Of a stretch of DNA of 64,000 bases, positions 1-5,311 are shown piece after piece; within the stretch, counting starts at the first letter, position 1; the number at the start of each line of letters is the position of its first letter. Source of the stretch: an uncultured Clostridia bacterium. Lineage in GTDB: Bacteria; Bacillota; Clostridia; Christensenellales; UBA1242. The position numbers and the translations under genes were made by a program. The stretch covers positions 214,676-278,675 of the forward strand of contig CALWEA010000001.1 of assembly GCA_944376905.1 (NCBI GenBank). The letters run 5' to 3'. The notes below the pieces were generated by a model. That model did no database searches and was not told the origin of the DNA. It saw nothing but the letters and a program-made list of their open reading frames with translations.

Positions 1-2745
1 GATATTGCTAATAAAAAAGAGCAAATTCAAAGACTTGAAGAACAAAAAAGTGAATTGATTGCACAGGTTGAAAATTTAACAACAATAAAAAATGATAATG
101 AAACAACAATTTCTGGACTTAATAATCAAATAGACACTTTGCAATCACAAATTGCTGATTTATCTAAAAGTGAAACTGATAAAAGTAAAGAAATTGCTAG
201 ACTGACTGAACAAGTAAATAACTTACAATCATTATCAAGTCAATTACAAAAAACAAATGAATTGAATGTTGAAACTATTAACAGTTTAAATAATCAAATT
301 AAATCATTAAATACCCAAATTAGTGAAATGAATTATTTAATTAACAACAGTGGTTCAATCGTTTCTTCATTAAATGCTAAAATTGCTGAACTTGAAAAAA
401 GTGTAGCTTATTACGAAGAATATATCGCAAGTATGGAAAGTGGCGAGCAAGTTGTTGCAACATTTGAATTAAACGGAAGCGTTTACAATATTCAAATAGT
501 AAATAAAAATGACATTGTAACAGTAACAACACCTACTTCAACAGATTATGTGATTTTTAACTATTGGACTGTGAATGGAGAAAAAGTAGATTTATCCACT
601 TTTAAAGTAACAACTAATACAAAATTTGTTGCAAATGTAACTTTAAAATTTGATGCTATATTTAAAGTTGATTTTGAAGAATATGACAAACAAATTATAG
701 CTGAAAATGGTTTTGCTACTCTACCAGAAGCACCAACAAAAGATGGTTATGAATTTGATGGCTGGGTAATTAGTGGTAATGAAATTGTTGATGTAAACAC
801 TTATAAAATAACTCAAAACACAACCTTTACTGCTAAATTTACTCAAATTCACACAGTAACCTATATGTATGAGAATGACATTATAGGCACAGAGCAAGTT
901 AGAAATGGTAATAGCGTGGTAGGAATTGAAGTTCAAAATACTCCTTACAAAGAGTTTAATGGCTGGACTTTTAATGATACTTTGATTGATATTTCAACTT
1001 ATAAAATCACTTCATCTATTGTTTTGAAAGCAAGCATAATCTATAAATATGATGTAACTTTTATGGTAGATGATGAAGAATTTGAAACAATGATAGTTGC
1101 ACAAAATAACTACGCAAGTATATCCTCTACTCCTACAAAACGAGGTTATGAATTTGTTGGTTGGTCGCTTAATAATACTGATATTGTAAATGTTTACAGT
1201 ATTAAAATTACAGAAAATACAACTTTCTACGCTATGTTTAATAGAATTTACGCATTTGAAGCAGTTGAGTATAAAGATTTAGTGCAGTTAACAGGTCAAT
1301 ATGTTTGGGATGATGGCGAAAATGTTTATTATTCTTATCAAGATGAGCAATTTGTGTTAGATAAACAAACAAACTCTTGGTCTAAAAAAGAATGGAAAGG
1401 TCTTGAAAGTTTTGCTGGAAGTTTTATTTGGACAGACGGAACTAATGTTTATTATTCATATAATAGCAACAACTATGTTTTAAATAAGCAAACAAGTGTA
1501 TGGACAAGAAAAACTTGGAGTGGCTTAACAAAAATAAATGCTAATAATATTTGGACTGATGGGACAAATATTTATCATACTGAAAACGGAACTCATTACA
1601 TTTTAGCCCCTTCAACAAGCACATGGAAAAGAAAAAGCTGGTCTGGTATCGGTGATCCATACAATACCTATGATATGTGGTTCGCTGGAGAGAATGTGTA
1701 TTGTGAAACCATTATAGGTGATTATTATAAATTCGATAAAGCAAACGATAAATGGGTTGAAATTACAGTAACTTCAAGTTCTAGTTCTGGTGGTTCTAGT
1801 TCATATAGTGGCCATTGGACAGACGGAACTAATGCATATGTTGGTTCAACAACTGTTTATAATATTGAAACAAACACTTGGGAACCTATGACTTGGAATG
1901 GCATTGAGGGGTTTAGTGGTCAATCTGTTTGGTTTGATGAAAATGGTAATTTATATTCTTCAAATGGCTATACACATTATTCTTTTGATAAATCTTCTAA
2001 TACTTGGAGCATAATTGAGTGGAAAGGTATTTCTAGTTTTGATACTACTTACATTTGGTCAACAGACACTAATACCTATTATTCTAACGGAAGTTTGCAA
2101 TATGTGTTAGATAAGAAAACTATGACTTGGAATAAAAAGCAATGGAATGGTTTAACTTCAATAAATGGCTCTTATGTTTGGACTTTTGAAGGCAAAACAT
2201 ATTATATGGCAAGTAAAGATTATTATGTTTTGAATGAAGAAACTAGCACTTGGAGTTTATTGCATTCAAACGGTACTGCTGTAATGAGTTCGAGTATATG
2301 GACAGATGGCACAAATATATATTATAGCCTTTTAGGAACATATCAGTTAGATAAAGAAAGTATGACTTGGACACAATTAAGTGATTATAGCACCAACATT
2401 ATATTTGGTAATTGTATTTGGAGTGATGGTGAAAATCTTTACTATTCATCTAATGAAGAATTTTTCTCTACTATTCTAGGACAATATGTTTTTGATAAAG
2501 AAACAAATACATGGGTTGAAACTACTTGGGAACAATTAGGAGATTATAGTGGTAGAAATGTTTGGACTGATGGCGAAAGAATTTACTATTCGTTAGGATA
2601 TGAGCAATATGTTTTAAATACTGAAACAAGAACTTGGGAAGCTATGGTTTGGGAAGGAATAGAAAGCTTTGATGGTGAAGATGTGTGGACTGATGGAATA
2701 GATATTTATATTTCAAACGGCATTCAACAATACAAAATGAAATAA
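1..2745 (+). CDS. Large receptor-binding-like repeat protein (5' end outside window): coiled coil + 4 Listeria-Bacteroides-type repeats + 12 Kelch-like ~40-aa repeats
   Basis: Frame 1 is open from nt 1 (DIANKKEQIQRLEEQK...), so the TTG at 55 is not the true start. The N-terminus is Q/L/N-rich and heptad-like. Four GYEFxGW...NTTFxAxF modules follow, then 12 repeats of (I/V)WTDGxN(I/V)YYS..YVL(D/N)KxT..W..W.G. Stop is TAA at 2743-2745. Confidence 0.6.
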   Translation, partial: DIANKKEQIQRLEEQKSELIAQVENLTTIKNDNETTISGLNNQIDTLQSQIADLSKSETDKSKEIARLTEQVNNLQSLSSQLQKTNELNVETINSLNNQIKSLNTQISEMNYLINNSGSIVSSLNAKIAELEKSVAYYEEYIASMESGEQVVATFELNGSVYNIQIVNKNDIVTVTTPTSTDYVIFNYWTVNGEKVDLSTFKVTTNTKFVANVTLKFDAIFKVDFEEYDKQIIAENGFATLPEAPTKDGYEFDGWVISGNEIVDVNTYKITQNTTFTAKFTQIHTVTYMYENDIIGTEQVRNGNSVVGIEVQNTPYKEFNGWTFNDTLIDISTYKITSSIVLKASIIYKYDVTFMVDDEEFETMIVAQNNYASISSTPTKRGYEFVGWSLNNTDIVNVYSIKITENTTFYAMFNRIYAFEAVEYKDLVQLTGQYVWDDGENVYYSYQDEQFVLDKQTNSWSKKEWKGLESFAGSFIWTDGTNVYYSYNSNNYVLNKQTSVWTRKTWSGLTKINANNIWTDGTNIYHTENGTHYILAPSTSTWKRKSWSGIGDPYNTYDMWFAGENVYCETIIGDYYKFDKANDKWVEITVTSSSSSGGSSSYSGHWTDGTNAYVGSTTVYNIETNTWEPMTWNGIEGFSGQSVWFDENGNLYSSNGYTHYSFDKSSNTWSIIEWKGISSFDTTYIWSTDTNTYYSNGSLQYVLDKKTMTWNKKQWNGLTSINGSYVWTFEGKTYYMASKDYYVLNEETSTWSLLHSNGTAVMSSSIWTDGTNIYYSLLGTYQLDKESMTWTQLSDYSTNIIFGNCIWSDGENLYYSSNEEFFSTILGQYVFDKETNTWVETTWEQLGDYSGRNVWTDGERIYYSLGYEQYVLNTETRTWEAMVWEGIESFDGEDVWTDGIDIYISNGIQQYKMK

Positions 2746-2757
2746 TGGAGTAGTTTT

Positions 2758-3603
2758 GTGATAACAATAATTTTTGCTCCTCCACGCACTGGTAAAACTT
2801 GTTTAATGACTCATTTAGGTCGTGAAATGGCTTTTGACAGAGTTAGGAACAAACTTATGAGTCAAGAATTATTACAAAAAAATAAAAACGGATTTAGTTT
2901 GACTATACCCTCTCATTGTTTAAGTGCTAATTATGATATTGTCGCACGCAAGTTTGGGTATAGTCCTAGACTAAGTCGCAAAATTAACCCTTACAGGTTA
3001 GGCTTTAAAAATAAGTTTGTTAAAACACATTTCAATTTCCCTTATGAGTGTATTTGTATAACAGAAGCTCAAAAATATCTTAATTCAAGAATGAGTATGT
3101 ATTTCCCAGAGTGGCAAAGTAGATGGTATGAACAACACGGGCATAACAATCTTGATATCTTTATGGATACTCAAAGACCAATGCTTATTGATGTGAATAT
3201 TAGAGAACTAGCGCAGTTTATTGAAGTTATAAAATTAGAAAAATTTTATGATGATTACGGTAAAATTTGCAAACTAAAATGGACTGTTAGAAAAATTGAA
3301 AATTCCAGCTTATTTGATAGATATATGGCAAGTGGTAAAAAAGATAATAGTTGTTATGAAGAAGAAGTAATAACAGCAAATTATAATGTTTTTGCTTGCT
3401 ATAACTCTCAAAATTGTAAACCTAAATTTTATGATGGTCATTTGGACGAAGATTTTGATTTGGAGTATTCAAATGAATTAGAAGAGAATTTAGAAGGCTA
3501 CATTAAGTATTTGCAAGAAAATGATGATGAATTGCCAGAAGAATTTTATCAATCAAGAATTTTTAAAAAGGAGAAAAGCAATGATAAACTACAACAAAAA
3601 TAA
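2758..3603 (+). CDS. Zot/pI-like P-loop NTPase (filamentous-phage assembly ATPase family)
   Basis: GTG start lies 7 nt after GGAG and 12 nt after the upstream stop. Walker A is at residues 7-14 (APPRTGKT) and a Walker-B-like CICITEAQ follows, the layout typical of Zot-type NTPases. There is no C-terminal TM segment and the tail is acidic. Confidence 0.5.
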   Translation: MITIIFAPPRTGKTCLMTHLGREMAFDRVRNKLMSQELLQKNKNGFSLTIPSHCLSANYDIVARKFGYSPRLSRKINPYRLGFKNKFVKTHFNFPYECICITEAQKYLNSRMSMYFPEWQSRWYEQHGHNNLDIFMDTQRPMLIDVNIRELAQFIEVIKLEKFYDDYGKICKLKWTVRKIENSSLFDRYMASGKKDNSCYEEEVITANYNVFACYNSQNCKPKFYDGHLDEDFDLEYSNELEENLEGYIKYLQENDDELPEEFYQSRIFKKEKSNDKLQQK

Positions 3604-3847
3604 ACTAATAAATCAAAATTTAAGTAAGTATTATGAAACATTTAGTTTAACACTTGATACTGTTGATTTTGTCCCAGAAAAGTATAATAAAAAGATTTGT
3701 AAGTATATCTTTAAAAATATGAAAAAGTCCTTTAAAAAGATTGATAAAGAAGATAGAAAATATCAACGAAAAATCAAAAAAAATGAAAGAATTAAAAGGA
3801 GGAAAATTTATGGGATTTTTCACAGGAGAACAAAAAAAGATGGCTAA
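3581..3847 (+). CDS. Small highly basic protein (88 aa), unknown function
   Basis: ATG 3581 is preceded by AAGGAG (3568-3573), so it is preferred over the track start at 3521, which lies inside the Zot-like gene. The C-terminal half is Lys/Arg-rich (KEDRKYQRKIKKNERIKRRK). No TM segment. Confidence 0.4.
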   Translation: MINYNKNKLINQNLSKYYETFSLTLDTVDFVPEKYNKKICKYIFKNMKKSFKKIDKEDRKYQRKIKKNERIKRRKIYGIFHRRTKKDG

Positions 3848-5110: not shown

Positions 5111-5192
5111 AAGACAAACGGCAACTAAAAAAATGTGAGGCAGAAACGGAAAGCCTGCGCGTTGATGCCCACATTAGTTGCCGTTTGTCTTT
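5110..5192. repeat. GC-rich long hairpin 1 (19-bp perfect stem plus inner extension)
   Basis: AAAGACAAACGGCAACTAA (5110-5128) is the exact reverse complement of TTAGTTGCCGTTTGTCTTT (5174-5192). Inner pairs are TGTG/CACA and GGC/GCC. It starts right at the Rep stop codon. Confidence 0.8.
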
Positions 5193-5239
5193 ATTCACCA
5201 AGATTTTAATTGTGAAATTTCTTGCTTTGTTTGTGTTTT

Positions 5240-5297
5240 GGCGTGTGCTTGTCTGGTGGCGCGAAGCGACACCACTTGTTCAAGACAAGCACACGCC
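5240..5297. repeat. GC-rich long hairpin 2 (15-bp perfect stem with nested inner hairpin)
   Basis: GGCGTGTGCTTGTCT (5240-5254) is the exact reverse complement of AGACAAGCACACGCC (5283-5297). The inner hairpin GGTGGCGC-GAA-GCGACACC has one mismatch. Confidence 0.8.
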
Positions 5298-5311
5298 AGG
5301 ATCTCATTTTT

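Follow-up and report, generated by a model that had tools for sequence, protein, structure and literature searches.

A candidate inovirus-like prophage with a Zot-type ATPase, a two-tyrosine Rep and conserved hairpins in low-GC gut Clostridia

We looked at the left end of a 64,000-nucleotide (nt) stretch of contig CALWEA010000001.1 from an uncultured Clostridia bacterium, hereafter called the window, where positions 1-5300 (the core) hold the genes of a candidate integrated phage of the filamentous type. The host belongs to a low-GC Clostridia lineage of animal guts, with relatives in Ca. Caccovivens and Pumilibacter. A mollicute (RF39-like) host, suggested by the GC content, was rejected because NCBI taxonomy places the related genomes in Clostridia. 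The runs holding the element are chicken-gut metagenomes. For comparison, contigs of the same or related bacteria were numbered as loci (L). Two of them were of particular use: L001, a Logan contig of 7539 nt from a chicken-gut run, matches window 1-5298 at 100% identity and reaches 2241 nt further to the left, and L005 is a 235-kb scaffold with a Rep protein 97% identical to that of the window and a right flank 96% identical to window 5106-14563. Transmembrane (TM) segments of the ATPase family were called by a Kyte-Doolittle scan. In the core, all genes are on one strand and tightly packed: a large repeat protein is followed by a Zot/pI-type ATPase, two small basic proteins, a rolling-circle Rep and two GC-rich hairpins (Table 1). 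An earlier note, made from the letters of the window, had described these co-directional parts, and all of them are present. The core open reading frames (ORFs) are all intact in both the window and the identical contig L001.

The ATPase ORF starts with GTG, 12 nt past the stop codon at 2745, and its product carries a Walker A motif (APPRTGKT) at residues 7-14 and a Walker B-like ICITEAQ. When searched alone, the window protein reached 19.0 bits with Pfam Zot, just under the threshold of 20.3, and matched PHROG 197 ('Zot-like toxin') at 2.3e-8. An exhaustive HMMER search gave 282 clusters at 50% identity. Pfam Zot was matched by 77 of 90 representatives of the family, and residues G12, K13 and E103 were invariant in their alignment. 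The family profile also matched the N-terminal domain of Neisseria Zot (PDB 2R2A) with an E of 1.9e-15. The AlphaFold2 (AF2) model of the ATPase had a predicted local distance difference test score (pLDDT) of 95.6, its top Foldseek match was again 2r2a (E 2.5e-9), and Inoviridae Zot proteins were among its best viral matches in BFVD. Because the Pfam Zot, PHROG, 2R2A profile and Foldseek matches agree, the window ATPase belongs to the Zot/pI family, as the earlier note had proposed, and it is a candidate assembly or extrusion motor. In public metagenomes, 852 homologues were found.

The rep gene starts 470 nt downstream of the ATPase gene. The two small proteins encoded between them have an isoelectric point of about 10 (10.3 for the protein of 88 amino acids, aa). 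The 88-aa protein is kept after Zot in most related loci, with 37-76% identity, and neither it nor the 72-aa protein matched Pfam or PHROG. Rep scored 43.2 bits with PF23343 (REP_ORF2-G2P), well over the cut-off of 27.8, and holds the three superfamily I motifs in the expected order, FCTFTYD at residue 162, HFHGLF (HUH) at 210 and YICKYIEK (two tyrosines, YxxxY) at 272. No sequence match of Rep to solved structures was found. Judged by its motifs and its profile match, Rep is a two-tyrosine HUH initiator of the PF23343 family. This family has 3227 homologues in public metagenomes, mostly unnamed.

The hairpins stand out from the surrounding DNA, with a GC content of 0.45 for hairpin 1 and 0.60 for hairpin 2 against 0.26 for the window. 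The 231-nt stretch holding them folds at -61.9 kcal/mol (z = -9.8), none of 200 shuffles folded as well, and the hairpins are the most stable 120-nt segments of the first 23 kb. An apparent intragenic hairpin at 2881-3000 had a z of -5 with RNA parameters; with DNA parameters and dinucleotide shuffles it was not significant (z -1.4) and it was discarded. An equivalent of hairpin 1 was found at the same place in the elements of 8 other genomes, with a conserved base ACGGCAAC/GTTGCCGT and a conserved loop motif AAAGCCTGCG in an otherwise different sequence. Elements of different species carry hairpin 2, which sits 130 nt past rep, in 11 distinct variants. The outer stem hardly varies and is 97% paired. 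Five pairs are changed on both sides (e.g. L020, Pumilibacter muris), which 0 of 500 shuffles matched, and pairing of the hairpin is 90% versus 28-53% in slid controls. Moreover, ACT(T/C)GT is present in the unpaired stretch of every variant. On this comparative evidence, both hairpins are conserved cis elements. Hairpin 2 is a candidate plus-strand origin, with the unpaired ACTTGT as the likely nick site of Rep. The phiX origin is cut within CAACTTG/ATA, which resembles this ACTTGT; we regard the resemblance as a lead and not as a test. By analogy with the intergenic region of Ff phages, hairpin 1 is a candidate packaging signal or complementary-strand origin.

The first gene of the core runs off the left edge of the window, since no stop codon interrupts frame 1 between base 1 and the one at 2745 (the ORF list starts at the first TTG, at 55, and gives 896 aa). 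The repeat protein of more than 900 aa in the earlier note is therefore present but truncated by the window edge, and the complete protein, read from L001, has 1008 aa. It has an N-terminal TM segment (residues 1-35, outside the window) and a coiled coil. It matches the Flg_new (Listeria-Bacteroides) repeats (Pfam E 2.1e-17) and contains about 11 beta repeats of 123 nt, or 41 aa. A single-sequence AF2 model of the C-terminal repeats was all-beta with four strands per repeat. Because its pLDDT was 50, the model was unusable and no fold search was made with it, and the propeller fold given to this protein in the earlier note is not confirmed. In related elements, the slot before Zot holds highly variable large proteins (635+346, 696, 827, 850, 853 and 1005 aa). 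From its position directly upstream of the ATPase, which is the pIII slot, the large repeat protein is a candidate adsorption or receptor-binding protein. The diversification of the slot would be as expected for a receptor-binding protein under selection.

The genes to the left of the window edge could be read from the identical and related contigs. L001 encodes a 53-aa single-TM protein and then proteins of 404 and 171 aa, each of these two being N-terminally anchored. In L005, the element has a large serine recombinase, encoded on the opposite strand, and then a LexA/S24-type repressor and small proteins. Next come, in order, two conserved proteins (one basic, of 86 aa, and one of 118 aa), two single-TM proteins (68 and 53 aa), the 404-aa and 171-aa proteins, the big protein, Zot, the two basic proteins and Rep. 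The repressor matched PHROG 4 at 2.9e-25 and has a precomputed Pfam Peptidase_S24 assignment. The 53-aa protein of L001 and the 68-aa and 53-aa proteins of L005 have one strong hydrophobic segment each, as in the short structural proteins of inoviruses (30-90 aa, single TM). The earlier note had considered the lack of a coat-like ORF between Zot and Rep as atypical, but, just as in inoviruses, the coat-like genes are found upstream of those for the large proteins. The extension to the left that it suggested thus brought single-TM coat-like proteins, a candidate protein binding single-stranded DNA (ssDNA), a repressor and an integrase. No type IV secretion system (T4SS) family, VirB4, coupling protein or MOB relaxase was detected by Pfam among the ORFs of at least 120 aa in window 1-23 kb (17 of 19 scanned) or among the upstream genes of L001 and L005. 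Likewise, no structural gene of double-stranded DNA (dsDNA) or tailed phages was found in the core or in the upstream genes of the identical and related contigs. The conjugation backbone and dsDNA-phage genes that the earlier note had named as evidence against a filamentous phage are thus not seen there.

We then looked at how far the element is spread. A profile scan of one genome per species gave 29 loci with a conserved gene order, all from gut Clostridia with small genomes, carried by Ca. Caccovivens faecavium, Ca. Onthoplasma, 'Christensenella'-labelled and other Clostridia metagenome-assembled genomes, and the isolate Pumilibacter muris CLA-AA-M08 (organism labels are those of the records; taxonomy was checked). 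A Rep of the PF23343-type family lies at most 5 kb downstream of Zot in 18 of 28 genome loci, and a membrane protein of the ~485-aa type is found upstream of Zot in many of the related elements. The core proteins are 50-80% identical across species. Since core proteins and hairpins are kept across species, with compensatory changes in the hairpins, purifying selection appears to act on their function. L023, from the cultured P. muris isolate, holds a full element (2142-17000): a tyrosine integrase, an S24 repressor, the 118-aa protein, two signal- or TM-anchored proteins, the second of which overlaps the start of Zot, then Zot, two basic proteins, Rep and both hairpins. YpsA and HNH genes come next. 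A serine recombinase was found in 7 loci (L005, L017, L019, L025, L027, L038 and L058). In L058, host genes and tRNA-Ser(TGA) start directly beyond the recombinase, and in L027 the end of the recombinase overlaps the end of the ogt gene. A recombinase 99% identical to that of L005 is present in L068, with a Pycsar effector-like gene (PycTM, 4460-5008) beyond it, and L069 has the same recombinase as L068 next to a different neighbour. Since these neighbours differ, the recombinase end may also carry variable defence cargo. L005 has an extra 165-aa ORF (11083-11580) between the stop codon of Rep and hairpin 1, and the same insert is found in L006. A more distant relative, L004 (MT835493.1, human faeces; an unverified, unannotated 57-kb 'Bacteriophage sp.' contig), holds at 2673-11224 a Rep with 58% identity, both hairpins, the 86-aa and 118-aa proteins and five TM-anchored proteins.

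On the right side, the cross-species similarity of the elements stops 10-25 nt past hairpin 2, after the conserved AGGATCTCA, and we place a module boundary there because the similarity ends so shortly beyond. L007 encodes a Rep protein identical to that of the window and has both hairpins, and it diverges after window ~5313 into a small AbrB/SpoVT-like gene (L007 1992-2206), of a kind also found after Rep in L008-type elements. The divergence of L007 is evidence of module exchange at the hairpin boundary. A circular or attachment (att) junction at 5298/5299 was considered as well, as four independent contigs end there (L001, L002 and L006, and L007 near 5319). It was rejected: the next contig overlaps at 5280-5298 and a second hairpin 2 variant is present in the same samples, so the breaks at 5298 correspond to an assembly branch at a shared repeat.

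The genes past the hairpins are of an accessory kind and change from strain to strain. In the window, they start with a disrupted membrane-protein gene and continue with an HNH-type nuclease, a 248-aa ORF and a C5 cytosine methyltransferase on the opposite strand, which together make a candidate type II restriction-modification (R-M) unit at 6526-9222. In strains with a 98%-identical Rep, the same slot is taken by genes for a D12 methyltransferase, an HNH_2 protein and an SMC-like ATPase of 939 aa, and other species have SNF2 helicase and methylase, AbiTii, HEPN or type III R-M genes there. In L016, L025, L029, L038, L023, L027 and the window, the hairpins are directly followed by accessory or defence genes of differing kinds. 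Beyond this slot comes a PcfJ-PcfK-ArdA block, typical of the leading regions of conjugative elements. The block is at the same place, with different cargo before it, in L005 and L046-L048, copies from the same species whose Rep is 97-98% identical, and PcfJ and PcfK genes are also found downstream of the element in L027, a different species, at another site next to ogt. A complete Gabija system, with adjacent gajA (ATPase and TOPRIM) and gajB (UvrD-like helicase) genes overlapping at 15731-15759, lies between the ArdA block and an att-like remnant.

This remnant, the likely right end, consists of a pseudo 3' end of tRNA-Ser at 17499-17537 followed by a terminator. It forms, with a second copy at 22089-22127, a 36-nt direct repeat that resembles the T-arm and acceptor 3' end of the L058 tRNA-Ser. 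The terminator after the first repeat is that of the complete tRNA-Ser(TGA) abutting the recombinase end in L058 and L059 (91% over 35 nt). A fragment of a serine-recombinase C-terminus lies just beyond, so that the order of tRNA end, terminator and recombinase end at ~17.5 kb is the same as at the left end of the L058 element. No att-like remnant was found at ~5300. We conclude, with moderate support from these comparisons, that the integrated unit probably runs past the hairpins to ~17537 and includes the defence slot, the ArdA/PcfJ/PcfK genes and Gabija. The earlier note had let the module end at the two hairpins, but the mobile element probably continues through the cargo to ~17.5 kb. It is likewise moderately supported that window ~17538-22127 would be an older, decayed sister element, with the recombinase fragment (17630-17719) at its left end. 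This part also encodes a GLUG-motif surface protein of 1139 aa (18000-21419), and the 104-aa gene has its second copy there (21736-22026, 80% aa identity). The tRNA-Ser reading of the end is weakened by L068 and L069, where no tRNA is present within 350-700 nt of the recombinase. In L038 (122-146), AGCACTCCGCCA, which is read as a tRNA-Ser 3' end in the window, encodes the C-terminus of the recombinase (STPP) and is then followed by a terminator; its orientation is opposite, and the two readings are not reconciled. Comparison of the two ends of the elements in L019, L025, L027, L038 and L023 gave only chance-level direct or inverted repeats, and an exact look-up of the host gene right of the island, made to find an empty site, returned the same samples only.

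Table 1. Features of the core, the cargo and the element end in the window (coordinates and strand refer to the window; an empty cell means that none was given)
Feature	Position	Strand	Basis or remark
Large repeat/surface protein, last 914 codons	1-2745	+	open frame, full length in L001, Flg_new, 123-nt repeats
Zot/pI-type P-loop ATPase, 281 aa	2758-3603	+	PHROG 197, family profile, Foldseek
Small basic protein, 88 aa as called	3581-3847	+	called on identical contigs; longest ORF from 3521
Small basic protein, 72 aa as called	3810-4028	+	called on identical contigs; longest ORF from 3741
Rep, predicted two-tyrosine HUH rolling-circle initiator, 344 aa	4076-5110	+	PF23343, motifs
Hairpin 1, long stem-loop	5110-5192	+	begins at Rep stop codon; 19-nt perfect basal arms
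Hairpin 2	5240-5297	+	15-bp outer stem, inner mini-hairpin, unpaired CCACTTGTTCA (ACTTGT at 5274-5279)
Conserved AGGATCTCA	5298-5306	+	just 3' of hairpin 2; module boundary
Disrupted 321-aa membrane-protein gene	5312-6277	-	ORFs of 77 + 204 aa match one intact L005 gene, 93% identity
HNH-type nuclease	6526-7245		Pfam/PADLOC
Unannotated 248-aa ORF	7163-7909		overlaps HNH nuclease gene
HTH-fused (helix-turn-helix) C5 cytosine methyltransferase	7930-9222	-	Pfam/PADLOC
YpsA/SLOG protein	9344-9829	-	Pfam/PADLOC
HTH protein	9941-10354		
104-aa gene	10403-10714	-	
PcfJ	10727-12040	-	Pfam
PcfK-like	12044-12652	-	Pfam
Two small ORFs between PcfK-like and ArdA genes	within 10727-14024	-	
ArdA antirestriction gene	13473-14024	-	Pfam
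Gabija GajB, 381 aa	14614-15759	-	PADLOC 2.3e-106
Gabija GajA, 554 aa	15731-17395	-	PADLOC 4.7e-199
Likely right att remnant	17499-17580	+	pseudo 3' end of tRNA-Ser GTACGGTTCTAAAGTTAAGCACTCCGCCA at 17499-17537, then terminator
Serine-recombinase C-terminus fragment	17630-17719	-	tblastn with P0391 residues 473-502, 57% identity, E 1.4e-5
Second tRNA-Ser-3'-like repeat copy	22089-22127	+	likely outer end of decayed element

Taken together, window 1-5300 is probably, in our judgement, the half of a temperate inovirus-like (Tubulavirales-type) prophage that serves morphogenesis and replication, in a low-GC Clostridia bacterium from chicken gut. The filamentous-phage interpretation of the earlier note is carried further by the ATPase, Rep, the conserved cis region and the upstream genes, and is given up for the end at the hairpins, the 'atypical' coat slot and the propeller. 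In such a prophage, the repressor would keep the element silent, and the recombinase would integrate and excise it, next to the tRNA-Ser 3' end in close relatives. On induction, Rep would nick hairpin 2 in the plus strand, at the unpaired ACTTGT, and start rolling-circle synthesis of ssDNA. The 118-aa protein may coat this ssDNA, and hairpin 1 could act as packaging signal, complementary-strand origin or both. The soluble Zot-like ATPase and its membrane-anchored neighbours would work as a 'split pI' that threads the DNA through the membrane, while the 53- and 68-aa proteins coat it during threading. Finally, the large variable protein would sit at the tip and bind the receptor.

We compared the element with known phages. 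It resembles integrative inoviruses (Tubulavirales; PMC6813254) in its Zot/pI ATPase, its short single-TM proteins placed before larger anchored proteins, its rolling-circle Rep, its structured non-coding region, its one-strand core and its combination of repressor and recombinase. It differs from them by an ATPase with no TM segment, by a two-tyrosine Rep of PF23343, by its gut Clostridia host and by a probable unit of ~25 kb with defence cargo, ArdA/PcfJ/PcfK and Gabija. As cited in PMC3218068, the Ralstonia phage phiRSM1 is a filamentous phage with a serine recombinase and tRNA-Ser integration, and in relatives of our element integration also adjoins tRNA-Ser. BLAST-level similarity to GenBank phages was limited to bajarodino virus 12 for Zot and MT835493.1 for Rep, and IMG/VR gave nothing with a single protein and one 5.4-kb contig with a profile. 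Bajarodino virus 12 (PQ006185.1) is a circular 9.8-kb genome from rodent faeces, deposited as Inoviridae. Like the element, it encodes a Zot of similar length with no TM segment (32% identity, tblastn), directly preceded by a homologous membrane protein of ~500 aa (485-aa type, 34% over 406 aa), and an integrase and a repressor. It is a distant relative only: no homologue of the window Rep or of hairpin 2 was detected in it, its 377-aa 'integrase' has no similarity to the serine recombinase of the element, and its GC content is much higher in parts.

The Rep belongs to a Pfam family named for ORF2 of SpV1 and for G2P, and the host is of low GC, as for the Plectroviridae (Spiroplasma SpV1-type). 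Those are ssDNA phages of rod or filament type, a type that the window element would share. No plectrovirus of the phage collection was similar to it at the BLAST level, the other genes are unrelated, and the window host is a Clostridia member with the standard code instead of a mollicute. With the phiX174 gpA-type (superfamily I) initiators, Rep shares the three motifs, HUH and YxxxY; the element differs from phiX174 and other Microviridae in having no capsid gene, and its Rep in having no sequence match to a solved structure. Large integrated elements with a pI-like gene have been described as IME1 of Dehalococcoides; they measure 21-28 kb and encode a pI-like ATPase, several small TM proteins, a repressor and, at one end, a recombinase (bioRxiv 10.64898/2026.09.15.751708). 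They are proposed to be filamentous or budding viruses, and their DNA is abundant in viral fractions (same source). IME1 elements, which we liken by description, differ by primase-helicase replication, a proposed dsDNA genome, a tyrosine recombinase and restriction to Chloroflexota. The cargo recalls the leading regions of conjugative elements (Samuel et al. 2024, PMC11541004), where ArdA and PcfJ/PcfK-type genes are clustered and co-oriented and the DNA is expected to enter single-stranded. The block of the element differs in having no origin of transfer, relaxase or T4SS context and in being on the strand opposite to the phage genes.

Several observations weigh against an inovirus-like prophage. 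The element is known here from assembled contigs, with no virion, ssDNA or circular form, and no circular contig, terminal overlap or circular junction was found among them. The word depth of the element was close to that of its flank (19.7 vs 18.8 in one run, 12 vs 9.2 in another), which indicates an essentially single-copy, integrated state with no sign of episomal replication in these samples. As the earlier note had remarked for the window protein, the ATPase has no TM segment, and this holds for the other 89 representatives; a weak N-terminal hydrophobic stretch right before Walker A in two of them (P0244 and P0251) was not counted as TM. According to Roux et al. 2019 (PMC6813254), pI-like clusters are genuine only with one or two TM domains, and by this rule the ATPase fails. 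Neither Pfam nor PHROG gave a match for the structural proteins, and no solved structure in the PDB was matched by the profile of the 118-aa protein. The terms 'coat', 'SSB' (ssDNA-binding protein) and 'adsorption protein' are accordingly positional ones. Some copies are decaying: in L005, Zot is broken into pieces of 60 and 170 aa (8665-9527), and Rep is broken in L019 and L040. A profile search found no Zot-like ATPase in L004. Finally, the left end of the window's own element is outside the window, and a unit of ~25 kb, if that is its size, exceeds classical inoviruses.

Some of these observations could be explained if the element were not a virus at all and was instead an integrative mobilisable or minimal conjugative element like the integrative and conjugative elements of actinomycetes (AICEs). 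The HUH Rep would then be a replicase or relaxase, the soluble ATPase, an FtsK-HerA superfamily member, would pump DNA to a neighbour cell, the TM proteins would be channel or spread proteins, the repeat protein an adhesin, and ArdA/PcfJ/PcfK the leading region. This would fit the absence of a pI membrane anchor, a unit of perhaps 25 kb, the single 5.4-kb contig in IMG/VR, the lack of a depth excess, and the conjugative families ArdA, PcfJ and PcfK at a conserved place in L005 and L046-L048 (PcfJ/PcfK in L027). We nevertheless hold it to be unlikely, as neither the window proteins scanned nor the left part contain VirB4, a coupling protein, a MOB relaxase or another T4SS family, and as the ATPase is specifically Zot-like and not FtsK/TraB-like. 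Furthermore, the pair of 53- and 68-aa single-TM proteins before larger anchored proteins and the ATPase is the layout of inoviruses, and a relative is the circular faecal genome deposited as Inoviridae.

The preferred reading, an inovirus-like prophage, may also be drawn too wide or too alive. The phage could be of only ~12 kb and end at the hairpins (~5300), with 5300-17500 being a separate genomic island or a degraded integrative and conjugative element; we see this as possible, with the odds leaning against it. Such a core would have a size that suits classical inoviruses, and the end of cross-species similarity past hairpin 2, the junction in L007 to a different gene and the variation of the cargo between hairpins and PcfJ among strains all agree with it, as do the L063-like elements, which consist of the core only with host genes directly on the left. 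Against this, it is at 17.5 and 22.1 kb, and not at ~5300, that tRNA-Ser-like remnants with a recombinase fragment are found; the differing defence or accessory genes past the hairpins in every species examined fit carried cargo better than chance neighbours, and PcfJ/PcfK also follow the L027 element at its other site. A defective, domesticated remnant that makes no particles and is kept for its defence cargo or its surface protein appears still less probable than either the short phage or the mobilisable element. The single-copy depth, the broken genes in L005, L019 and L040 and the decayed sister element at 17.5-22.1 kb of the same window speak for domestication. The intact core ORFs in the window and L001, the conservation of core proteins and of both hairpins across species with compensatory changes, and a large-protein slot that diversifies as a receptor-binding protein would speak for function.

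Filamentous phages shape the behaviour of their hosts by toxins, biofilm and chronic release. To our knowledge, hardly any are known from the strict anaerobes among the Firmicutes that dominate animal guts. The lineage described here is common yet almost invisible to annotation, as its proteins are nearly all unnamed and it has one IMG/VR contig and one distant GenBank phage relative. As its TM-less ATPase shows, an entire clade can be lost through a filter published for 'genuine' inoviruses. Integrative filamentous phages, serine-recombinase integration at tRNA-Ser and large pI-encoding elements (IME1) are already known. What is new is a widespread lineage of gut Clostridia with a TM-less, apparently 'split' pI and, as far as the comparisons tell, a PF23343 Rep with a defined conserved hairpin as candidate origin; a probable further novelty is that the element is linked to a defence slot with exchangeable content and to an anti-restriction block resembling a leading region. 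The conserved hairpin with its invariant loop offers a directly testable origin, and the cultured carrier P. muris an experimental entry point.

A bolder version would make the element a filamentous-type phage of ~25 kb with conjugative leading-region logic, a hot-swappable defence slot and a 'split pI', representing a family-level group of Tubulavirales in gut Clostridia that current detection criteria exclude; in this full form we think it a long shot. The ArdA/PcfK/PcfJ block, the methyltransferase and other cargo are encoded opposite to the phage genes, on the complementary strand. Should the packaged strand be the plus strand, as it is in Ff phages, the ssDNA entering a cell would itself serve as their template. 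Their transcription could then precede synthesis of the complementary strand, and they could guard the new duplex against restriction. If the defence and anti-restriction genes do travel with the phage, the element would be a vehicle for immune-system exchange among gut Clostridia.

Beyond the second repeat, the window continues into host DNA. An Mrr type IV methyl-directed restriction enzyme is encoded at 22191-23027 (PADLOC 3.5e-74), and its real start is probably downstream of the att-like repeat, because the match begins at residue 51 of the ORF. It is followed by a BspA-type leucine-rich-repeat protein of 809 aa (23262-25691), tRNA-Met and tRNA-Glu (32895-33148) and FtsH (39916-42414). 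From about 17.5 kb onwards, the cumulative GC skew climbs steadily up to the right edge of the window.

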